Source of the DNA: Bdellovibrionia bacterium
Lineage (GTDB): Bacteria; Bdellovibrionota; Bdellovibrionia; Bdellovibrionales; JAGQZY01
Assembly: GCA_030424715.1 (NCBI GenBank)
Contig: JAUHWH010000002.1
Span: forward strand, 147,080 to 211,079
DNA: 64,000 nt
Direction: 5' to 3'
Below, piece after piece: positions 4,238 through 25,595 of the stretch. Position numbers and translations under genes: made by a program. The notes beneath the pieces were generated by a model that was not told the DNA's origin, searched no databases, and saw nothing but the letters and a program-made list of their open reading frames with translations. Every line of letters starts with the position of its first letter. Position 1 is the stretch's first letter.

Positions 4238-7200
4238 CTAGAGGTTGCGTCGGTATTGGCCGCCCATTTCAAAAAGAGCTTGGGTCATCTCGTTTAACGA
4301 ACAAACCCGGGCCGCGTCCATCAAAGCGGCAAAGATATTGTCCCCTTGCAGGGCTGCGAGCTTCAACTTCTTCAATTGCTCGTCGGCCTCAGTCGCGTGA
4401 GTCTTTTGAAAGGCTTTCAAGTTGTTGAGCTGCTGATTCTTCTCCTCTTGAGAAGCACGGGCCATCTCGATTTTTTCGGGAACATAGCCCTCTTTCAAAG
4501 TCTCAGGATTGATAAATTGGTTCACGCCCACAATTGGTAAATCGCCTGAGTGCTTGAGGTGCTCGTAGTGCATGGACTCTTCCTGGATTTTGCCACGCTG
4601 GTACTGGGTCTCCATGGCCCCGAGTACGCCTCCACGTTCACTGATGCGCATAAATTCGGTTAAAATCGCCTCTTCGACGAGCTCAGTCAACTCGGTCATA
4701 AAAAAGGACCCCTGATTAGGGTTTTCATTTTTTGCCACGCCAAACTCTTTATTGATAATCATCTGGATGGCCATGGCGCGACGAACCGACTCTTCTGTGG
4801 GTGTGGTGATGGCTTCGTCATAAGCATTGGTGTGAAGCGAGTTGCAGTTATCGTAAATGGCTAACAAGGCCTGCAGAGTGGTTCGGATATCGTTGAAGTC
4901 AATCTCTTGGGCGTGTAGCGAGCGCCCTGAGGTTTGGATATGGTACTTCAACTTTTGCGACCTTGGACTTCCTTTGTAAAGATTCTTCATCGCCACGGCC
5001 CAAATCCGACGAGCCACGCGACCGATGACCGCATACTCAGGGTCCATACCATTACTAAAAAAGAAGGACAGATTCGGAGCAAAGTCATCGATGTCCATGC
5101 CACGCGACAAATAGTATTCCACAAAGGTAAAGGCGTTGCTCAGGGTAAAGGCCACCTGACTGATGGGATTGGCTCCGGCCTCGGCGATATGATAACCGGA
5201 GATGCTAACGGAGTAAAAATTCCGCACTTTGTTCTCGTTAAAATACTGTTGAATATCACCCATCATCTTCAAAGCAAAATCGATAGAAAAGATACAGGTG
5301 TTTTGCCCCTGGTCCTCTTTCAAAATATCGGCCTGAACCGTACCACGCACACTTTGCAGGGCTTCTGTCTTAGCCTGTTCCCACTCTGCAGAACTCAGGG
5401 CGCTGCCTTTTTCTTTTTCTTTTTTCTCGACCAGCTGATCAATAGCGGTGTTAAAGAAGAAAGCCAGAATCATGGGGGCCGGACCATTGATCGTCATACT
5501 GACGGAGGTTGTTGGTGAGGTCAGCTCAAAGCCATCGTAGAGCTTTTTCATATCATCGAGAGTGCAAATACTCACACCACTCTCCCCCACTTTACCAAAA
5601 ATATCGGGTCGCTCATGGGGGTCAAAGCCATACAAAGTGACGCTATCAAACGCGGTCGACAGCCTCTTGGCGGGAGCATCTTTGGATAGGTAATGAAAAC
5701 GCCGGTTGGTTCTTTCGGGCGTGCCCTCACCGGCAAACATGCGAGTGGGATCTTCGCCCACGCGCTTAAGCGGGAAAACCCCAGCCGTGTAGGGAAAACT
5801 TCCGGGCACATTCTCTAAGCGAAGAAATTTCAGACGATCGCCCCAGTCGGTGAACTGAGGTGGCGCCACCCTGGGAATCATGGTTCCACTTAAAGATTCA
5901 TTGAACAGAGGCTGTCGAAACTCTTTGTCTCGCACCTTGTAGACATACTCGTCGGCCTTGTAGGTTTCGATCATCTGATCCCAACCATCAAGCTCTTGCA
6001 AGCATTCGTCGGGAATCTCTTTTTTGTATTGGTCTTCTAGGTTTTTCGATTCGTTGAGGTCTTCTTTAATTTTATAATAACTACCAAGCTTTGAGGCTTT
6101 TTCAGCGAGTGCCAAGGTTTCTTTCTTATAGCTGCGCACAGAGGCCACAATTTCGGCTAGATAATTCTGCCGCTCCGGTGGAATGATACTTTGCTTTTCG
6201 GCACCACGCACCTGTGCCTTCTGCTCATCGGTGAGGCTCCACGTGTAGGATGGGTCTCGTTTAGCCAGTTCGTCAGAGAGGGCAAAGAACAAATGATTCA
6301 CGCCCAAGTCATTAAATTGGGCCGCTTGGGTGAGGTACACAGGAATATCAGAATCTTTCGCTTCAAAAACCTTACGAGACCGCTTGTATTGTTTGCGCAC
6401 ATCTCTCAAGGCATCTTGCGAGCCACGGTGGTCCGCTTTGTTAATAGCAATCAGGTCGGCAAAATCGATCATATCAATTTTCTCAAGCTGCGATTGTGCA
6501 CCGAACTCAGAGGTCATCACATACAAGGCCAAATCACAGACCTCGGTAATCGCCACGTTGGCCTGGCCAATCCCTGATGTCTCGGCAATAATCAAATCAA
6601 AATCGTAACCTTTCATAAGGTCCAACATTTTGGGTAGAGAGCCAGCGATTTCAGAGCCTGAACCCCGCGAAGCCACCGAGCGCATAAAAACACCCGGACG
6701 TGATAACGAGTTCATTCGAATTCGATCACCGAGGAGAGATCCCCCCGTTTTGCGTTTCGACGGGTCGACACAAATCACACCCACTTTCAGATCAGCATAG
6801 GAGTTGAGCAATCGCTGAATCAATTCGTCGACCAAACTGGACTTGCCAGCGCCTCCCGTTCCGGTCACACCGAGCACCAGTGGAGCGGTCTCTTTCTTGA
6901 ATGCAGAGAGTTCTGACAACACGGGTTCCGGCATTGCTTGGTCAGTATCAATGGCATCAAGGGCGACACCTAAAAGTCGATGTGGGAGCTCTTCTCGCCC
7001 AGCGAGTGACTGATTGAAGGTTTTGGCTTTTGCGATGGCCTCTTGGACTGAGAAGTCACACTTCTCCATGATTAAGTTAATCATGCCATCGAGTCCCATT
7101 TTACGACCATCATCGGGATGAAATATAAAATCGATCCCATACTTTTCAAGTTCTGTTTTTTCCTCGTGAATGATCACGCCTCCGCCACCACCAAACGTTT

Positions 7201-17767: not shown

Positions 17768-19003
17768 GTGGGCCTTAAAAATGAAGGCCTCCCAGAGGTC
17801 AAAGCCAGCCTCAACGAGTTGGAAGAGCTTGCTACCACAGCAGGTTGGGAGGTTGTTGGTAACATCACGCAACTTCTTAACAAGTGGACTCCGGCCACCC
17901 TCATCGGCACTGGTAAAGTTGACGAGATCGGGCATATTGCAGCGGACTGTGGCGCCAACTTTATCATTATCGACCATCACCTCACCGGCGTACAGACGCG
18001 AAACTTAGAAGAGCAGTGGAAACCGGCTCGTGTTTTAGATCGCTCGCAAATTATCATCGAAATTTTCGCCCAAAGAGCCCGTAGCTACGAGGGCAAATTG
18101 CAAGTGGAGCTGGCCCAATTGCTCGACCAACTGCCTCGGCAAGTGGGAGCCTGGCTTGGCTCCCTCTCCCGACAAGGAGCCGGCACGGGTGCACGGGGTG
18201 GTGGTGAAAAAGCCATCGAACTGGACCGTCGGCAAATCCGCAAACGTGTGGAGATTATTAAAAAGAAACTCAAAGACGTGCAAAAAAAACGCAAGCAACA
18301 TCGCAGCTCTCGCGAAAAAAACCAGGTCCCAAGCTTTGCACTGATCGGTTACACCAACGCCGGAAAAAGCTCATTGATGAATGCCATGACTCAAGCCGAT
18401 GTCTACGCCGAAGATCAGCTTTTCGCCACTCTGGATCCAACCACTCGTAAAATCTATTTGGACGAAGGCTCCCACGCCGTGATTACCGACACCGTGGGAT
18501 TTATCAATAAACTCCCCCATAACTTGATCGACGCTTTTAAAGCCACTCTCGAGGAGTCGGCCAACTCCGATATTCTGTTGCATGTGGTGGACCTGTCGAA
18601 TCCTCAAATGGAAAAGCAAGTGGAAGTGGTGGATCAGCTCATCAAAGAATTTGGCTGGGATGACAAACCCATTATCCATGTGTTCAATAAACTTGACGCC
18701 GCTCCGGTGCAAAATCGATTTCGCGTCAAGCAAGCCCCCAGGGTTTTCACTAGCGCCCAAACCGGTGAAGGGCTTACTGAACTCAAAGAGCTGATGCTTG
18801 AAACCTTAAACAAGCTGACCGTTCCCCTAGAGGTTTTCTTTCCTCTCGAAGAAAAACATCTCTTTTACGAATTACAAAAAGACGCCACCAGCATTTACAA
18901 AGAGGAAAGCCAACTTGGTCTTGTCTGCAAAGCCCAGCTGGTTCCCGGCCTGGTGAAGAAGTGGCGTGATTACCAAGTCGAAAAAGGCTCTTCTGACGTT
19001 TAG
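17768..19003 (+). CDS. hflX: GTPase HflX
   Basis: HflX N-terminal domain (LEELATTAGWEVVG, GKVDEI) and a G domain (LIGYTNAGKSSLMN, DTVGFI, NKLD). The listed start is a GTG. The frame stays open upstream to 17711 without a canonical start, so the true start is uncertain. Confidence 0.88.
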   Translation: MGLKNEGLPEVKASLNELEELATTAGWEVVGNITQLLNKWTPATLIGTGKVDEIGHIAADCGANFIIIDHHLTGVQTRNLEEQWKPARVLDRSQIIIEIFAQRARSYEGKLQVELAQLLDQLPRQVGAWLGSLSRQGAGTGARGGGEKAIELDRRQIRKRVEIIKKKLKDVQKKRKQHRSSREKNQVPSFALIGYTNAGKSSLMNAMTQADVYAEDQLFATLDPTTRKIYLDEGSHAVITDTVGFINKLPHNLIDAFKATLEESANSDILLHVVDLSNPQMEKQVEVVDQLIKEFGWDDKPIIHVFNKLDAAPVQNRFRVKQAPRVFTSAQTGEGLTELKELMLETLNKLTVPLEVFFPLEEKHLFYELQKDATSIYKEESQLGLVCKAQLVPGLVKKWRDYQVEKGSSDV

Positions 19004-19176
19004 TGGCCCCAGAGTCAAAAGCCCTGACTAATGTGCAAAAGCACTTTCTGGTGGTCTTTGCCCCACTTGCCAGGCCCCGTCCAACTGTCTAAACATTGGT
19101 GACCCATGTGATTCTTTCAGCCATAGTTGAAAAGCCTCAAAACTTATGACAGCTTGGTTCGGTATAAAATGATGAG

Positions 19177-21147
19177 GTGGATTCGGTGTTTAAGTTGGCT
19201 TTCTTATTATCAGTTTCTCTGTTTTTTCTACAATTCATTTCGACAAAACCTGCCGGTGCGGCGGATAGTTGCAGTGAAGTTTTCTTAGAACAACGATCAA
19301 TTCTTGCCCACGGATCTTCATCGTTGACAAATCTAAGGCTGCTCAAAAACTATGAGCAGATCGACCCCGAAGTTTCGGTCGCACTGAACAAAGCCCTGTC
19401 TTCCAATTCCGCAAATAGGCGCAAAGAAAGTCAAAGAATTGCGTTACGATATGTAAAAACGCCCTCAAAACGCAACAGCGAGGCTTTACTTGAAGCTCTC
19501 GAAGTTTTAGTACCCATTGCTCTGCGACCAATAGCCCACAAAATCCGAAATCTGGAGCAATTTCACGACATGATGCAGGTGGGACGACTGGCCCTCTGGC
19601 AAGCCATTCTCTCCTTGCGAAAGACCGATGGGGACCTGCTTGAAAATATCTTGTACTGGGAGGGCACGCTTCACAACGTTCGAGCCAGTATCTTTGCAGC
19701 CATGCGCCTGGAATATCGCTCACAATATTCGCTCACGCCCCTTGATTTTCACAAAGGCAAAGAGTTCACCTTTAGAGAAGAAATCCTTCTTTTCGGAGAC
19801 TCACCGCGAGCCCTGCAAACCATAGCGAAAAGATACGATCTTCCCTTGGACCAAGTCCAAAAAGAAAAAGACCTTATCGAGAGATCGATGTGGGAGGAAA
19901 ATGGACAGTTCTCAACAGAAGGAACGGCGGACACCCTTTCGTCACAAGCGCTGGTGCAGACACAAAATCAGGCGGACCGAAAAACATTAACGACGCGCAT
20001 GATGGCTGTGCTCCCCGCCCGCCAAAAGCGAGTGATCCATCTGCGTTTTTTTGAAAATAAAACTCTGGAGGAAACGGGTCTTGAACTTAAGGTAAGTGGA
20101 GGACGAGTTCGGCAGCTGGAACAGAAGGCTCTGAGAAGAATGAACCATCCTTCACTCGCGAGACAAGCCAGAGGTTCTGACCCAACCAACCTCCCCATAA
20201 CCATTGGGCCACGGCATATTCCGGCTCAGCCAAGGGAGTACTGGGACCCGACCTACCGTCGCCTTAGCAAGCTGGAGCAAGAGCAAAAACGGCGAGATGA
20301 CCTCGCCGAAAAAGCCAAGAGGAGAGAAGAGCAATCTCTGATCGCTCGAGCGCAAAAAATAGAAACAGAACGGCGTATCGAACTGATCACCGAACTTTTG
20401 GAGACCCACAATATTGCAAAAATCCTAGAAGTTATAACACTTGATTCAAACACACGAACCAATAGTTATGATTTTGGCTACAAGGAGCAGTTCCCGAAAG
20501 TAGAAATGGCAGGCCTTCGAGTAGCCAGCTTTGATGTTCGCTCAATCCTGCCGAATCGTCCGTGGGGTCTACTGAATCGGAAATTGTACGGGTTTATTGA
20601 AGCTCAACCCGAGAATTTCAACAATGGACAGGGTGAATTGACCCAGCGGTCAGTCGAAGACGCTTTTTACAACCAACGTGAAGAGGGCCTAAAGCAAATG
20701 ACTGGAGAGATCGAACAGCTTGTGGCAACCATTGGTCGCGATGTTGTAGAAACCTTCGATCGTGCCCTTGAATTTGAACTTCAAACAATTTCAAAATTGA
20801 ACCCTTTGTTTGAGGAACTCCGACAAAATGACCTCATCATGCAGAATGGAGAAATTTTCCCGAGACCAACCAGAGGAGACTGGAAGACGGGCTTCCGCCA
20901 AAGAGATGATCTGCCGGTGGAATTAGAAAAAAAACTAGAGTTTTATCAGCTACGAGACTTCTTTTTTCGAAAACTCAGTCAGATGCTTGAGATCCATTTA
21001 GTGAACAATCCCACCCCGATCAATCAGATAAAAGGGAGCCCAGTGGAGGCCCTCTCTTTGCCGGAGACTCGCAGGATGGTGCGGGACCGATATGTTAGGC
21101 AGCTGGCCCAAGCGCAAAGGGAATACAATAATTTCGTTCGGGAATAG
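19177..21147 (+). CDS. Atypical sigma-70-family-like protein with N-terminal hydrophobic leader and long C-terminal extension
   Basis: 656 aa. The region-2-like segment is LVPIALRPIAHKIRNLEQFHDMMQVGRLALWQAILSL. The region-4 HTH is clear: LPARQKRVIHLRFFENKTLEETGLELKVSGGRVRQLEQKALRRM. The N-terminus KLAFLLSVSLFFLQFISTKPAGAAD is Sec-signal/anchor-like. About 320 aa follow region 4, including a charged coiled-coil segment. Confidence 0.6.
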   Translation: MDSVFKLAFLLSVSLFFLQFISTKPAGAADSCSEVFLEQRSILAHGSSSLTNLRLLKNYEQIDPEVSVALNKALSSNSANRRKESQRIALRYVKTPSKRNSEALLEALEVLVPIALRPIAHKIRNLEQFHDMMQVGRLALWQAILSLRKTDGDLLENILYWEGTLHNVRASIFAAMRLEYRSQYSLTPLDFHKGKEFTFREEILLFGDSPRALQTIAKRYDLPLDQVQKEKDLIERSMWEENGQFSTEGTADTLSSQALVQTQNQADRKTLTTRMMAVLPARQKRVIHLRFFENKTLEETGLELKVSGGRVRQLEQKALRRMNHPSLARQARGSDPTNLPITIGPRHIPAQPREYWDPTYRRLSKLEQEQKRRDDLAEKAKRREEQSLIARAQKIETERRIELITELLETHNIAKILEVITLDSNTRTNSYDFGYKEQFPKVEMAGLRVASFDVRSILPNRPWGLLNRKLYGFIEAQPENFNNGQGELTQRSVEDAFYNQREEGLKQMTGEIEQLVATIGRDVVETFDRALEFELQTISKLNPLFEELRQNDLIMQNGEIFPRPTRGDWKTGFRQRDDLPVELEKKLEFYQLRDFFFRKLSQMLEIHLVNNPTPINQIKGSPVEALSLPETRRMVRDRYVRQLAQAQREYNNFVRE

Positions 21148-21335
21148 TGTTGTTTTAGAGGCGAGATGCCTCATCACGAATAAGGTTAATTTATTTAACC
21201 CCTCCACCTTCAACAGTGTACAAGCCTTTGTCACTCGTGGCGAATTTACACTATCGTTGCCTTCGCCCAACAAAAAGCCCAATGAAATGCTATAGTGACA
21301 GTGTGTTCAGTTGTTTTTTGTAAAAACTGTTTTCC

Positions 21336-21737
21336 ATGGAGGATTTTGTGCTTAAAAAATTTTTGGCTGTCTCAACTCTGTCGTTTGCACTAATGAGCGC
21401 TGCTCAGGCCTGCCCTCGACAGACGGTGCAGGGTGTTTTTAAAAAGACGGTTTGCACCCAATCGTCGATGACGGTCGGGGGTTCCAACCAAGAAAGCCCC
21501 GAGGAGTGTCGCCCCGTCATTAAGCTCCCTCCCGCGAACAATATGCGAGTCTGCCAAACAACGACCACCAAGGCCTTTGGGCAAGATGTGATTACGGAAC
21601 AGCACTGCAGTAACGAACCCCCTTTAAAGGACCCCAAGGGCCTCATGAAAAATCTACAACACGGCACTTTCGTAACCCTCACCCTCAGTTGCATGACCAT
21701 CGAGGCTGTGAGTCCACGCGGCACCAACTCGAACTAA
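21336..21737 (+). CDS. Small secreted Cys-rich hypothetical protein
   Basis: 133 aa. Signal peptide KKFLAVSTLSFALMSAAQA, then a mature part with 6 Cys. I recognised no family. Confidence 0.55.
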   Translation: MEDFVLKKFLAVSTLSFALMSAAQACPRQTVQGVFKKTVCTQSSMTVGGSNQESPEECRPVIKLPPANNMRVCQTTTTKAFGQDVITEQHCSNEPPLKDPKGLMKNLQHGTFVTLTLSCMTIEAVSPRGTNSN

Positions 21738-21976
21738 CTTAAAACCTCAATAGCGTCGTAGACTCCGCGAAAACATCAGTTAGCCTGATAAGAATATCCG
21801 CCGATGAACAGACGATAGGTTTCAGTCGAGCCTCACTGGCTCCTATTATTCTCGAGAACCTCTCCTGAAAGCCCTATAATTTCGATTTCAGCCCTTGAAT
21901 TGCCATTTACGACCATTCAGTTGAATGCTCTTGGCCTTGGACTGCGAACTATGGAATTCTGCGAAGCGTAGGGTCC

Positions 21977-22102
21977 ATGAAGAAAAGGACCCTCACTTTG
22001 CCCCAAACCGGAGGAGCTTGCTCCCCCAAAGTTGCCTTTGCCCCCATATTTGAGGGTCACCTTTTGGTGGCCCTCGCCCCCTTTTCTGCGGTATTAAATT
22101 AG
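21977..22102 (+). CDS. Candidate 41-codon leader ORF immediately upstream of the sensor kinase (speculative)
   Basis: Manual translation gives MKKRTLTLPQTGGACSPKVAFAPIFEGHLLVALAPFSAVLN. The stop TAG at 22100-22102 lies 2 nt before the kinase ATG at 22105. The ATG sits in the loop of a gggtcc/ggaccc hairpin (21971-21992). No strong SD. It is below the ORF-track size cut-off. Confidence 0.2.
   Translation: MKKRTLTLPQTGGACSPKVAFAPIFEGHLLVALAPFSAVLN
22052..22075 (+). promoter_or_regulatory. 10-bp stem-loop in the kinase leader (possible attenuator or structure element)
   Basis: gagggtcacc-tttt-ggtggccctc, with one G-U pair as RNA, followed by gcccccttttctg. It lies 30 nt upstream of the kinase start. 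Confidence 0.3.
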
Positions 22103-22104
22103 GC

Positions 22105-23256
22105 ATGGATGATTTGGAGAAAAAATTGGAATTGGAAGCCGAAAAGCTAAAACTCTCAGTACCGGAAAGGCCGGCCCCGCTAGACGATGGAAGGTCGAAC
22201 CCCTCCCCGCCTCAGCGCATCTCGGAGCTTTGGTCAGAGTCGGACTCGTTCCAAAAATTAGCTTTGTTTGCCATTGCCTGCTTTTTTGGCCCGGTTTTAA
22301 CCTTCTTGCTTTTGAGTAACCCGCAGTGGTCGATTTCTATGAAATTGAACCTTTCGGTCCCCGTCTACATATCTTCTCTTTATATCTTTTTTACTCTCTA
22401 TGATCAGTTAGTGAACCGCATCGTCGTTCAAATCGCTGGCGGTAAGCCTCGCCCCAGTATTCCCGTGGAGTTTGTTAAGTTTTTTCTCACCTTAGCGACC
22501 ACTGCCGTTTACCAGTACACTTTTATTTACGAGCCCGTCCTCCATTACCAACGCCCCCGTGACTTTACATTGCTTTTTGTGACCATCGCGCTTTACTCCA
22601 TGGTGGCGGCTTCCATTTTTTATCAGTTTCGAAAAATGAAAGACATCGCTCTAAAATCGAAAGTCGCCCAGGCCGAGGCCCAATACTCTATTCTCGAAAG
22701 CCAGATGCAGCCCCACTTTTTGTTCAACTCTCTTAACGTGCTGTCAGAGCTGATTTATGTCGATCCGGACCTTGCTGCTGCCATGACCCAGAAGATGGCC
22801 GATCTTTATCGTGAGATCCTTAATAATTCGAAGACCAAGTTTTCAACTTTAGAATCGGAGATTTCGATTCTTAAAAAATACGTGGAGATCCAGAAGATTC
22901 GGTTTGGAGACCGCATTCAGTTGAGTGTCGACGTCTCCCCGGCTTTTTACACCTTACAGATCCCCAGTTTGATGCTGCAAACCCTGGTGGAAAATGCCAT
23001 CAAACACGGGCTTGCTCCCAAGAAAGATGGCGGCGCTATTTTTTTGACCGTACAAAAAGTGGGTCAGCTGTTTGAAGTCTGCGTCTCGAACACGGGAGTG
23101 CTTTATAAAGGCCACACCGAATCCAAACGCAGCACCGGACTGCAGAACACTAAAAACCGCCTTGAGCTGACCTATGGTAGCAAAAACTCATTTCGAATTT
23201 ATTCAGACGAAAAACGCACTTATGTGAAATTTCTCATAACAGGGAGGACCTCATGA
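22105..23256 (+). CDS. Sensor histidine kinase, LytS/YehU/AlgZ(FimS)-type (His_kinase PF06580-like)
   Basis: 383 aa with several N-terminal TM helices. The H-box region QMQPHFLFNSLNVLSELI and the ATPase N-box QTLVENAIKHG are typical of LytS-family kinases that pair with LytTR regulators. Confidence 0.85.
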   Translation: MDDLEKKLELEAEKLKLSVPERPAPLDDGRSNPSPPQRISELWSESDSFQKLALFAIACFFGPVLTFLLLSNPQWSISMKLNLSVPVYISSLYIFFTLYDQLVNRIVVQIAGGKPRPSIPVEFVKFFLTLATTAVYQYTFIYEPVLHYQRPRDFTLLFVTIALYSMVAASIFYQFRKMKDIALKSKVAQAEAQYSILESQMQPHFLFNSLNVLSELIYVDPDLAAAMTQKMADLYREILNNSKTKFSTLESEISILKKYVEIQKIRFGDRIQLSVDVSPAFYTLQIPSLMLQTLVENAIKHGLAPKKDGGAIFLTVQKVGQLFEVCVSNTGVLYKGHTESKRSTGLQNTKNRLELTYGSKNSFRIYSDEKRTYVKFLITGRTS

Positions 23257-25154: not shown

Positions 25155-25595
25155 TTAGATGCCGAAAACACCCATGCCACCGTTACCGCTGCCGGTTCCT
25201 GTGTCGGAACCTGTTCCGCCACCAGTACCACCGGTTTGGTTTTGGTTTTGATTCTGGTTGTTGATGTTCGAAGTCACAGTAGTGTTACCCGCTGGGATAG
25301 AATCAATTCCACCAGTTTGAGGAGTGTTTGTCCCCGTGTTCCCTGCAGCGTTGATCTGATTCGAGTTGTTTTGAGCTTCAACAAAACCCATGTGTGGTAG
25401 GCACCATACAATAAGCTGAGCTCTCGACTTGACCTGCATCTTCTTATAGATATTGGTTAGGTGGAACTTGACTGTTTTTTCTGTAACGAACAGTCTATTT
25501 GCAACTTCCTTGTTGGAGAGGCCTTTTGAAACCAACTCTGCAACCTCGGCTTCTCTATTGGACAAACCCTTCTGTATTAGGACATCTCTGAGCAT
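25155..25595 (-). CDS. Stand-alone LuxR/GerE-type HTH protein with N/Q/G/T-rich low-complexity C-terminal tail
   Basis: The first ~65 aa are a complete GerE HTH (LSNREAEVAELVSKGLSNKEVANRLFVTEKTVKFHLTNIYKKMQVKSRAQL). The remaining ~80 aa are NNSNQINAAGNTGTNTPQTGG...NINNQNQNQNQTGGTGGGTGSDTGTGSGNGGMGVFGI. GGGAG RBS before the ATG. Confidence 0.8.
   Translation of the reverse strand: MLRDVLIQKGLSNREAEVAELVSKGLSNKEVANRLFVTEKTVKFHLTNIYKKMQVKSRAQLIVWCLPHMGFVEAQNNSNQINAAGNTGTNTPQTGGIDSIPAGNTTVTSNINNQNQNQNQTGGTGGGTGSDTGTGSGNGGMGVFGI

Follow-up and report, generated by a model that had tools for sequence, protein, structure and literature searches.

A divergent sigma-70-like protein with a Sec-type signal-like N-terminus and a long orphan tail, encoded in a variable slot of a Bdellovibrionales genome

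In a Bdellovibrionales genome, the interval that separates hflX from a lytS/lytTR pair is a variable slot, occupied here by a sigma-like gene and a 133-aa Cys-rich ORF. The locus lies within a 64,000-nucleotide stretch of DNA that was analysed as a whole (hereafter the window, from whose first letter the positions in Table 1 are counted). Pfam assigns the other neighbours to HflX and the LytS/LytTR pair. Both the sigma-like gene and the Cys-rich ORF are absent from four related genomes (HflX 81–83% identical); blastn synteny with relatives is broken at 18965–18984 and regained at 22263–22634, with spacer homology to loci L001, L002 and L004 starting from ~21905 and a left block edge that is not conserved. 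The cargo of the slot differs between genomes, loci L001, L003 and L005 holding unrelated ORFs with signal-like hydrophobic starts. We found no integrase, transposase, tRNA or Rfam RNA in the accessory block, and on these grounds a prophage or transposon insertion was rejected; a 14-nt direct repeat (D1) overlaps the conserved spacer motif and is probably not a target-site duplication.

The Cys-rich ORF belongs to no Pfam, PHROG or PADLOC family and its exact sequence is absent from the protein collection. It was discarded both as an anti-sigma factor (it is not anti-sigma-like and has no Pfam family) and as a conserved partner, being unrelated to the small ORFs of the same slot in L001 and L005. 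The + strand holds no terminator-like site between hflX, the sigma-like gene and the Cys-rich ORF, the first after hflX being the hairpin in Table 1; co-transcription is therefore possible, and transcription of the sigma-like gene could be joined to that of hflX or follow directly on it.

Table 1. Features of the sigma-like gene and its surroundings (positions in the window; residues counted from GTG 19186).
Feature	Position	Strand	Basis or remark
Lineage-specific accessory block, hflX to conserved spacer before lytS-like kinase	19004..21905	.	blastn synteny
Shine–Dalgarno sequence GAGGTG	19174..19179	+	6 nt 5' of GTG 19186; read from sequence
Sigma-like gene, CDS	19186..21147	+	653 aa plus stop; ORF opens at GTG 19177
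Sec-type signal peptide or hydrophobic pro-sequence, aa 1–25, MFKLAFLLSVSLFFLQFISTKPAGA / AD	19186..19260	+	hydrophobicity, rule-based scan
N-terminal linker, aa 26–92 (67 aa)	19261..19461	+	no family assignment
Degenerate sigma2-like domain (regions 2.1–2.4), aa 93–185	19462..19740	+	weak profile matches, Smith–Waterman
Sigma3-like domain, aa 186–265 (with DLPLDQV)	19741..19980	+	Smith–Waterman, model alignments
Sigma4 domain, aa 266–332 (regions 4.1/4.2 HTH plus NHPS tail)	19981..20181	+	Pfam, RpoD alignments
Proline-rich linker, aa 333–355	20182..20250	+	6 Pro in 33 aa; no helix predicted
Charged long helix, aa 356–407, E/K/R-rich	20251..20406	+	AF2 pLDDT ~80
Orphan C-terminal region, aa 408–653 (~245 aa), predicted all-alpha	20407..21144	+	AF2
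Cys-rich ORF, 133 aa, signal-like N-terminal segment, 6 Cys	21336..21737	+	ORF scan
Terminator-like hairpin, GAGCCTCACTGGCTC plus T-rich tail, first on + strand after hflX	21828..21852	+	terminator scan

The sigma-like gene is intact, single and continuous. Read from its first GTG (19177), the ORF runs along the + strand in one frame of 656 aa to the stop at 21147; the public record of the protein (P0001, 100% identical) starts at GTG 19186 and has 653 aa. This second GTG is the best start, having a strong Shine–Dalgarno sequence, and because that sequence (GAGGTG) lies 6 nt before the codon, a start that takes in the N-terminal hydrophobic segment is supported. The preliminary description of this locus had allowed that the true start might lie past the segment; the starts found there are a TTG at codon 50 lacking a Shine–Dalgarno sequence and ATGs at codons 132–133, inside region 2.2, neither of which is credible, and a mis-called start was rejected. 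It had likewise allowed for a separate C-terminal gene created by a frameshift, and we see no sign of a frameshift or of two fused genes, the ORF being single with a frame-0 coding signal in all segments.

The chance of 653 codons staying open at the gene's composition is ~2e-11 (~6e-6 for the 321-codon extension alone), and in each segment of the gene frame 0 outscores the five other frames for codon usage. An antisense shadow ORF has a similar codon-usage score (0.149), for which reason this score alone cannot prove a real gene. Codon adaptation (0.131) is lower than in any of 29 neighbouring genes, all of which reach at least 0.197. Its first 92 codons have GC1/2/3 of 0.40–0.48/0.36–0.42/0.36–0.42 where the remaining codons have ~0.6/0.37/0.5, and they score ~0 for codon usage; the linker (aa 26–92) has the lowest codon-usage score and a GC content below the rest of the gene.

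The N-terminus had been described as resembling a Sec signal or membrane anchor, and the resemblance to a Sec signal is borne out. The segment aa 1–25 (the hydrophobic N-terminus lying at aa 6–28 if residues are numbered over the 656-aa ORF) is the sole hydrophobic segment of the protein (KD-19 = 1.87), and is laid out as MFK / LAFLLSVSLFFLQFI / STKPAGA / AD: the n-region is basic, the core is 15 aa long and strongly hydrophobic, and around the cleavage site there are proline at −5, A-G-A from −3 to −1 and an acidic residue in position +2. A rule-based scan recognises the tripartite Sec/SPase I design here (basic n-region, core of 7–15 aa, small residues at −3/−1) and is the sole basis of the predicted cleavage after residue 25; the same scan leaves every housekeeping cytoplasmic ORF of the window unflagged. 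Four B. bacteriovorus Sec signals have been validated experimentally and suffice to export a foreign reporter (PMC12622784), and the N-terminus of the sigma-like protein has the same design (PMC12622784 S2 Table). The flank charges favour an N-in orientation, in which the sigma body would sit outside the cytoplasm. The linker that follows (aa 26–92) has no similarity to RpoD and no family match above noise in Pfam or NCBIfam.

Beyond the linker, alignments predict a colinear three-domain sigma-70 core that is non-ECF, group-3-like and very divergent (~25–28% identical to RpoD). By these alignments sigma4 is its best conserved module, appearing to retain both DNA-contact and fold residues: Pfam Sigma70_r4 (PF04545) matches aa 276–322 with E=4.5e-16 and 58.5 bits (cutoff 24.1), and the segment aligns with RpoD region 4 structures in the PDB (Smith–Waterman 109, shuffle mean 26). 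The region 4 HTH was called unmistakable in the preliminary description, and at this score it is, lying at aa 279–322 (656-numbering; nt 20011–20142), slightly upstream of the span of about 285–335 given there. Residue equivalents were taken from a HMMER alignment to RpoD, with E. coli sigma70 numbering; on what we take to be this correspondence, R586, R588, Q589 and the LRF flap-contact motif are kept in sigma4, and R584 and E585 are each replaced by Gly.

The same description had placed a region-2-like segment near aa 130; the segment, FHDMMQVGRLALWQAILSL, is present at aa 129–147 (656-numbering) and is convincing only in targeted tests. The Pfam region 2 model (PF04542) stays sub-threshold at 13 bits against a cutoff of 24 (E=0.093; P ~4e-6 if read as a single-model test, since this E value spans 24,736 models), a SigF model matches the region-2 part with E=0.028, and hhalign places aa 116–158 on regions 2.1–2.3 (P=0.0088). 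Against RpoD regions 1.2–2, aa 93–185 score 50 by Smith–Waterman, a value that 0/2000 shuffles reached (shuffle maximum 46). The sigma2 positions that we take to be equivalent to D403, Q406, G408, L412, A415, W433 and R441 are kept, those of E407 and N409 in core-binding region 2.2 are changed, and the alignment reads Y425D, F427L, Y430I, W434E, Q437L and T440V at what we assume to be the matching sites. Most promoter-melting residues of region 2.3/2.4, most of the aromatics included, are replaced, leaving a degenerate sigma2. When region 4 was cut off and the first 265 aa were searched alone, the PDB gave no sigma match.

Between sigma2 and sigma4, where group 3 factors have sigma3, lie aa 186–265. 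This segment scores 53 against RpoD region 3 (shuffle maximum 49, 0/2000), pairing DLPLDQV with DLPLDKV; RpoD_Cterm, RpoS and SigG models align from ~aa 200–214 onward, and the segment has a pLDDT of 57–87 in both models. Sigma70_r3 was not reported in the Pfam search. TIGR02937 covers aa 120–323 at 42.6 bits, 0.3 bits short of its 42.9 cutoff, and every specific sigma model scores below its curated cutoff; tblastn against plasmid rpoD genes aligns aa 125–329 at 26–29% identity. A core model built with 3 RpoDs has a pLDDT of 58.6, and a fold search with it places only sigma factors at the top, with low TM-scores and in a partly circular comparison. It had been asked beforehand whether region 4 alone would be detectable, as in a generic HTH protein; because segments beyond region 4 are detectable (regions 2 and 3, TIGR02937), the protein is better regarded as sigma-derived. 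The early remark that it is not ECF-like also agrees with the sigma3 segment: ECF membership was rejected on this segment and on the ~150–170 aa from region 2.2 to 4.2, and the region 4 model PF08281 (r4_2) scores 24.5, below its cutoff of 25.7.

As first described, the protein continues for ~320 aa past region 4, and this tail matches nothing in the databases. A charged stretch quoted at the time as a coiled coil is present (aa 365–400, 656-numbering); its heptad a/d hydrophobic occupancy of 0.47 fits a coiled coil poorly, and the predicted helix to which it belongs (aa 356–407) is probably a single alpha-helix or spacer. Further helices are predicted by AF2 at 487–547, 579–607 and 626–652 with low confidence; the full-length AF2 model, built from one sequence (pLDDT 38.9), was unusable for fold comparison. 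We found no internal repeats in the tail, and Pfam and a sequence scan gave no SnoaL, TPR, zinc-finger or transmembrane feature; a zinc-binding anti-sigma domain is excluded, as the tail has 0 Cys.

An exhaustive phmmer search of 1.84e9 (1.84 billion) representative proteins with the ~320-aa tail matched only the parent protein, and no relative of it was found in Pfam, NCBIfam, PHROGs, PADLOC or the PDB. A full-length word-index search returned the protein itself and three RpoDs, the latter via region 4; word-index searches with C-terminal and N-terminal fragments gave no match, and count as weak negatives in that they missed the parent protein too. Searches with the sigma-like protein found no homologue in GTDB genomes, IMG/VR or JGI metagenomes, tblastn against phage genomes aligns region 4 only (phage and plasmid searches together reaching the sigma region only), and a metagenome scan anchored on hflX found distant loci and no sequence like the sigma-like gene. 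Neither the extension nor the Cys-rich neighbour has a homologue in the collections searched. The gene is thus present as one copy in all public data searched, and is so far unique: a singleton among 15 billion proteins, on 1 contig.

We consider it highly probable that this intact, so far unique gene encodes a divergent sigma2–sigma3–sigma4 protein (with no region 1.1) bearing a 25-aa Sec-type signal, a 67-aa linker and a 320-aa orphan tail predicted, at low confidence, to be all-alpha, and that it sits in a hypervariable slot. The preliminary report of a sigma-like ORF with an odd architecture is confirmed, with all quoted motifs present, and none of the three outcomes on which it might have foundered (a start past the hydrophobic segment, a frameshift, detection of region 4 only) was encountered; the overall interpretation, which listed three possible functions without preferring any, is supported in part, being qualified by the degenerate sigma2, by the lack of any PDB sigma match without region 4 and by a charged stretch that is less like a coiled coil than described.

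As to what such a protein does, we tentatively favour, at low confidence, a membrane-targeted pro-sigma factor with an in-cis regulatory tail. By the same logic as in the pro-sequences of pro-sigmaK, pro-sigmaE and BldN, the hydrophobic N-terminus would direct the protein, once synthesised, to the inner membrane and so keep it from RNA polymerase. The helical tail might be a module for regulation or docking in cis, much as C-terminal extensions are on ECF sigmas. Once released, the protein would use sigma4 and sigma3 to engage RNA polymerase and a −35-type element, with altered specificity; with region 2.3/2.4 so degenerate, −10 recognition and melting would be unusual or weak. This reading is favoured by the sigma core matches, the strong Shine–Dalgarno sequence, the sole hydrophobic segment, the single gene, the literature precedents and the possible operon. 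It is weakened by an N-terminus that is a textbook cleavable Sec signal with N-in charges, and again by the degenerate sigma2, the changed region 2.2 residues and the PDB result; no cognate protease or anti-sigma factor was identified among the immediate neighbours, the +1 gene not being anti-sigma-like. If correct, a pro-sigma or tether of this kind would represent a novel mode of sequestration or regulation for a non-ECF sigma factor.

Singleton status and below-range codon adaptation, which mean that selection for function cannot be demonstrated, also weigh against the pro-sigma reading. Both count in favour of a gene that is young and chimeric, or in decay, without any function yet established, and whose odd combination is accident and not design, an account we regard as a live rival though somewhat unlikely. 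A divergent sigma gene and its tail would have come from an unsampled donor (phage, mobile element or distant lineage) into a recombination-prone slot, fusing in frame to the 5' end (Shine–Dalgarno sequence and signal peptide) of a resident secreted-protein gene; the absence from the four relatives, the distinct composition of the first 92 codons, the slot cargo that differs in each genome and the degenerate sigma2 all agree with this. Against it, 653 codons remain open after a near-ideal Shine–Dalgarno sequence, sigma4 keeps its DNA-contact and fold residues, the frame-specific coding signal continues through the tail, the block is flanked neither by mobile-element genes or a tRNA nor by a clear target-site duplication, and AT-rich signal-peptide codons are expected anyway. 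Such a chimera would offer a snapshot of new regulators being assembled by fusion in hypervariable genome slots.

The signal may instead be taken at face value, and true export, with cleavage after AGA25 and a sigma-derived body acting outside the predator cytoplasm, is in our estimate unlikely. In a mild form the sigma fold would be reused for another extracytoplasmic role; in a bold form the protein would be delivered to prey and bind prey RNA polymerase core or DNA, as compared with phage sigmas and transit-peptide plastid sigmas. The signal design fits four validated, reporter-exporting B. bacteriovorus signals and the scan singles out this protein from housekeeping cytoplasmic ORFs, although the call itself comes from that rule-based scan. 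The Cys-rich neighbour and the slot ORFs in L001, L003 and L005 also start signal-like, an argument that is weak because genes with signal peptides abound in these genomes. The best conserved part is sigma4, which contacts the beta-flap and DNA. A sigma2 this degenerate speaks against the protein capturing a foreign RNA polymerase efficiently, and Sec reaches the periplasm only, with no evident route into the prey cytoplasm. Moreover no exported sigma-fold protein is known, and ~8 million full texts hold 0 mentions of a secreted, exported or periplasmic sigma factor or of a sigma factor-like effector. That an exported sigma3–sigma4 body and tail reaches prey, binds its RNA polymerase or DNA and shuts down or redirects transcription seems to us most improbable. 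Export would make this the first exported sigma-derived protein, bearing on predator manipulation of prey; prey delivery would make it the first sigma-family protein known to act outside the producing cell and a bacterial counterpart of phage-encoded and transit-peptide plastid sigmas.

A cytoplasmic sigma-derived regulator that is no longer an initiation factor is very unlikely: its sigma4 (and sigma3) HTHs would bind DNA or a partner, perhaps as a decoy in the manner of the sigma mimic PhyR, with the tail for oligomerisation or sensing, as a strong sigma4, a sigma2 that has lost most melting residues, the long helical tail and the PhyR precedent would allow. Against this, the sigma2- and sigma3-like segments can still be detected, in colinear order and with several residues of region 2.2 retained; the protein has neither a receiver nor another partner domain, and the signal peptide is left unexplained.

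To our knowledge every characterised sigma-70-family protein, including those with sigma2-3-4, acts in the cytoplasm of the producing cell, and it is only among ECF sigmas that fused regulatory extensions have good documentation. Given that the gene is a singleton, its main present value is as a cheap experimental target, for which reporter-export and RNA polymerase-binding assays already exist in Bdellovibrio.

Several known systems share parts of this architecture. PhyR is a sigma-factor mimic in the literature, its degenerate sigma-like domain taking no part in transcription initiation; it combines an ECF-like domain with a receiver, whereas the sigma-like protein has a three-domain core, no Response_reg match and hence no such fusion. 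MzaA of the MZA anti-phage system and phage sigmas (PHROG 351) are also large divergent sigma-family proteins with extra domains, weakly matched via regions 3–4 (NF041931, 37.9 bits; PDLC02203, E=2.4e-5; phrog_351, E=5.9e-14). The sigma part of MzaA is at its C-terminal end (model positions 576–706 of 726), a different domain order, and an MZA defence system was rejected, NF041931 having a cutoff of 800 and the PADLOC match being region 4 only; no other defence-system family in PADLOC was matched by the sigma-like protein or its Cys-rich neighbour.

In B. subtilis pro-sigmaK and pro-sigmaE, the N-terminal extension can keep the factor inactive or at the membrane until a dedicated membrane protease (SpoIVFB or SpoIIGA) removes it. 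These and BldN resemble the sigma-like protein in placing an extension ahead of the sigma core, but in the present protein that extension has the canonical tripartite design of a Sec signal, A-x-A site included, and a 67-aa linker comes after it; the pro-sequences of pro-sigmaK and pro-sigmaE presumably do not resemble such a signal. Nothing points to a sporulation setting either, and the immediate neighbours include no protease of the SpoIVFB or SpoIIGA type. Both N-terminal pro-sequences, as on BldN of Streptomyces, and C-terminal regulatory extensions have been described on sigma factors (PMC7826278), the latter including ECF sigmas with fused SnoaL-like or Cys-rich extensions of ECF41/42-type logic (PMC7826278). 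Such ECF factors share with the sigma-like protein a long in-cis C-terminal extension and no recognisable adjacent anti-sigma, and differ from it in that it has a sigma3 segment and an RpoD-like region 4.

The closest likeness within the core is to group 1–3 sigma-70 factors (RpoD/RpoS, FliA/SigB-type). The sigma-like protein departs from these in lacking regions 1.1 and 1.2 and in having its N-terminal Sec-type signal and 320-aa C-terminal tail, neither of which, as far as we know, is carried by ordinary members. It has the same colinear regions 2, 3 and 4 at normal spacing, the region 2.2 motif F-D--Q-G---L--A and the region 3 motif DLPLDxV, and a region 4.2 close to that of RpoD, including the RQ(L/I)E-KALR-(x)3-HPS tail.

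The public record of the sigma-70-like protein (P0001, 653 aa, 100% identical) starts at the second GTG, at 19186, and GAGGTG at 19174–19179 forms a Shine–Dalgarno sequence six bases 5′ of this codon. The only other in-frame starts ahead of region 2 are two TTGs, one at 19195 that still falls within the hydrophobic segment and one at codon 50 that lacks a Shine–Dalgarno sequence; the earliest ATGs (codons 132–133) lie within the region 2.2 motif. Given these positions, the hydrophobic N-terminus is very probably translated, which argues against a true start downstream of it, as the preliminary description had allowed. That description also allowed for a separate C-terminal gene joined by a frameshift. 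Open-frame probability and six-frame codon usage gave no sign of one, because the chance of 653 open codons is ~2e-11 at the composition of the gene (~6e-6 for the 321 codons of the C-terminal extension alone) and the codon-usage log-likelihood of frame 0 tops all six frames in every segment.

Residues 1–25 (MFKLAFLLSVSLFFLQFISTKPAGA, then AD) are the sole hydrophobic segment of the protein and are built in three parts like a Sec/SPase I signal, in sequence terms a textbook export signal. A crude rule-based scan flagged the protein and one of the other 31 ORFs in the window (a probable membrane protein). Residues 26–92 gave no match in the RpoD comparison or to Pfam/NCBIfam profiles.

Region 4 is unambiguous by profile (Pfam Sigma70_r4, 58.5 bits against a cutoff of 24.1, E=4.5e-16); all the motifs first quoted are present, with the helix-turn-helix at aa 279–322 (numbered from GTG 19177), slightly upstream of the ~aa 285–335 originally proposed. 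The rest of the core is much weaker than was then assumed: Sigma70_r2 reached 13 bits, under its cutoff of 24 (E=0.093 when scaled to the 24,736 models of hmmscan; P ~4e-6 for the r2 model alone as a targeted test), Sigma70_r3 was not reported in the Pfam scan, TIGR02937 (aa 120–323) fell 0.3 short at 42.6 bits against 42.9, and the protein lies under or only at the border of every curated cutoff among specific sigma models. The PDB search returned a colinear RpoD alignment over aa 95–329 (best E=1.2e-10), a score owed to region 4, since region 4 of E. coli RpoD on its own matches the full-length protein in score; once region 4 had been taken out, the N-terminal 265 aa found no sigma factor in the PDB and matched only a SigF model, weakly (E=0.028).

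Regions 2 and 3 are detectable in separate module tests (segment-against-segment Smith–Waterman, 2000 shuffles each). Residues 93–185 scored 50 against RpoD regions 1.2–2 (shuffles 24.3±4.1, maximum 46) and residues 186–265 scored 53 against region 3 (24.5±4.5, maximum 49), an alignment that includes DLPLDQV against DLPLDKV; region 4 scored 109. By hhalign, aa 116–158 fall on regions 2.1–2.3 of an RpoD alignment (P=0.0088), and tblastn aligned aa 125–329 with plasmid-borne rpoD genes at 26–29% identity. A core model built with three RpoDs is modest (pLDDT 58.6), and its best structural matches, all sigma factors, lend weak and partly circular support. The protein is best read as sigma-70-family-derived, a three-domain, non-ECF derivative with a colinear sigma2–sigma3–sigma4 core, and not as a generic helix-turn-helix protein with region 4 only. 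Assignment as an ECF factor was ruled out by the sigma3 segment between sigma2 and sigma4; MzaA and PhyR-like assignments were rejected.

An HMMER alignment to RpoD allowed residues to be placed on E. coli sigma70 numbering. In region 2.2, the equivalents of D403, Q406, G408, L412, and A415 are retained and E407 and N409 are changed; in regions 2.3/2.4, W433 and R441 are the sole survivors, with Y425, F427, Y430, W434, Q437, and T440 replaced. In region 4.2 the equivalents of R586, R588, and Q589 persist, as does the HPS tail; those of R584 and E585 are both Gly. Sigma2 thus reads as degenerate, and the changes together imply that −35 specificity is altered and that −10 recognition and melting are doubtful or unusual.

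The charged helix of the tail reaches a pLDDT of ~80 even in a poor single-sequence model. Because its heptad hydrophobic occupancy is just 0.47, the sequence suggests a single alpha-helix or spacer, disfavouring the coiled coil first described; the helical prediction beyond it is of low confidence. The tail has no internal repeats and no Cys. For this 322-aa tail, HMMER run exhaustively over 1.84 billion representatives of ~15 billion proteins returned only the protein itself, and there was no match in PDB, Pfam, or NCBIfam and no PHROG or PADLOC family save one of phage sigma factors (phrog_351), which aligns from region 3 to aa 388 and no further. Word-index queries with fragments (aa 1–272, aa 335–656) are weak negatives, since they missed the parent P0001, which the full-length query found.

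Coordinates of the sigma-70-like protein, its locus, and the equivalent loci L001–L005 of related genomes (each in its own coordinates)
Feature	Position	Strand	Description
Sigma-70-like ORF	19177–21147	+	single, uninterrupted; 656 aa counted from first GTG
Pro-rich linker	aa 333–355		after region 4
Very charged helix	aa 356–407		predicted, pLDDT ~80
Further tail			~245 aa, predicted helical
133-aa ORF	21336–21737	+	signal-like N-terminus (…FALMSAAQA/C), 6 Cys
hflX–kinase interval, window	19004–21905		~2.9 kb; sigma-70-like ORF and 133-aa ORF
hflX–kinase interval, L001	11231–11920		96-aa ORF, signal-like N-terminus
hflX–kinase interval, L002 and L004			~0.5 kb, no gene
hflX–kinase interval, L003	9799–11246	opposite	245-aa ORF, signal-like N-terminus
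hflX–kinase interval, L005 (more distant)	4364–6400		129-aa Cys-containing ORF, signal-like N-terminus
14-nt direct repeat GTGGTCTTTGCCCC and variants	19051–19064, 22031–22044, 22067–22080		flanks accessory block, spacing 2980 nt
Imperfect palindrome GAGGGTCACC-N4-GGTGGCCCTC	22052–22075		followed by C/T-rich run; conserved
Second GGTGGCCCTC copy	37040
LytS-type kinase, window	22105–23256		383–386 aa (with L002)
LytS-type kinase, L001	11918–13474		518–522 aa (with L003)
LytS-type kinase, L003	11247–12815
LuxR/GerE-type HTH protein	25155–25595	−	146 aa

Anchoring on the upstream HflX GTPase retrieved Bdellovibrionales/Pseudobdellovibrionaceae MAGs (HflX 81–83% identical), all sharing the order malic enzyme, hflX, LytS-type kinase, LytTR regulator. 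The hflX–kinase interval differs in each genome compared; this slot is hypervariable, its cargo absent or mostly small, mutually unrelated Cys-containing ORFs with signal-like N-termini. Spacer homology to relatives picks up again at ~21905, the left edge of the block is not conserved, and no integrase, transposase, tRNA, or Rfam RNA occurs at the locus. The 133-aa ORF is apparently another orphan that was inserted together with the sigma-70-like gene, because it has no Pfam, PHROGs, or PADLOC family and the 15-billion-protein collection lacks its exact sequence. On the + strand no terminator-like site separates hflX and these two ORFs from one another, the first being at 21828. Because the copies of the 14-nt repeat on the right overlap the conserved spacer motif, the repeat is better explained as left over from duplicated spacer than as a target-site duplication.

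The palindrome, preceded by a conserved GCCTTT(A/G)(T/C)CCC, lies ~30–50 nt upstream of the kinase start in the window, L001, L002, and L004, and might serve the LytTR regulator as an operator, or form a structured leader. The sensor part of the kinase varies among close relatives, as an additional N-terminal block of membrane-spanning-looking segments is confined to the longer forms. In the LuxR/GerE-type protein an N-terminal HTH is followed by a long N/Q/G/T-rich tail of low complexity (…NNQNQNQNQTGGTGGGTGSDTGTGSGNGG…), an unusual arrangement for the family.

Two strong priors collide here: to our knowledge every characterised sigma2-3-4 protein acts in the cytoplasm, and this one bears an export signal. 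The gene is a singleton cluster on one 505-kb contig, with no relatives in GTDB genomes, IMG/VR, or JGI metagenomes; its codon adaptation (0.131) is under that of all 29 window reference genes (0.293±0.063, minimum 0.197), and GC is lower over its first 92 codons than in the remainder. A recently formed chimera, or a gene in decay, within a recombination-prone slot is accordingly a real, if somewhat unlikely, alternative, to be set beside the intact frame. True export, a prey-directed role included, is rather unlikely. In its favour, the segment closely parallels four B. bacteriovorus signals that experimentally exported a foreign reporter (...SAQA/ER, ...LAHA/QE, ...AAHA/GD, ...QAFA/GE; PMC12622784); against it, the literature searched nowhere mentions a sigma factor that is secreted, exported, or periplasmic. 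A cytoplasmic sigma-derived regulator that has lost initiation, in the style of a PhyR mimic, would suit the degenerate sigma2 and leave the signal aside, and we consider it improbable; action of an exported protein on prey RNAP is more improbable still.

The observations of the preliminary description (ORF, motifs, tail, signal design) hold, and its interpretation is partly supported, sigma2 being degenerate. The combination is odd, and experiments to test it would be cheap; its weight is limited by one gene, one genome, that sigma2, and no evolutionary sign of selection. As far as we found, no counterpart joining a Sec-type signal, a three-domain sigma core, and a 320-aa orphan helical tail has been described. 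We tentatively favour a membrane-targeted pro-sigma, in which the hydrophobic N-terminus would sequester the protein at the inner membrane, the helical tail would act as an in-cis regulatory or docking module, and the freed protein would engage RNAP chiefly via sigma4 and sigma3. Pro-sigmaK/E follow the same logic of membrane sequestration by an N-terminal pro-sequence. BldN is likewise a sigma factor with an N-terminal pro-sequence, and the C-terminal extensions of ECF sigma factors offer a precedent for an in-cis tail (PMC7826278).
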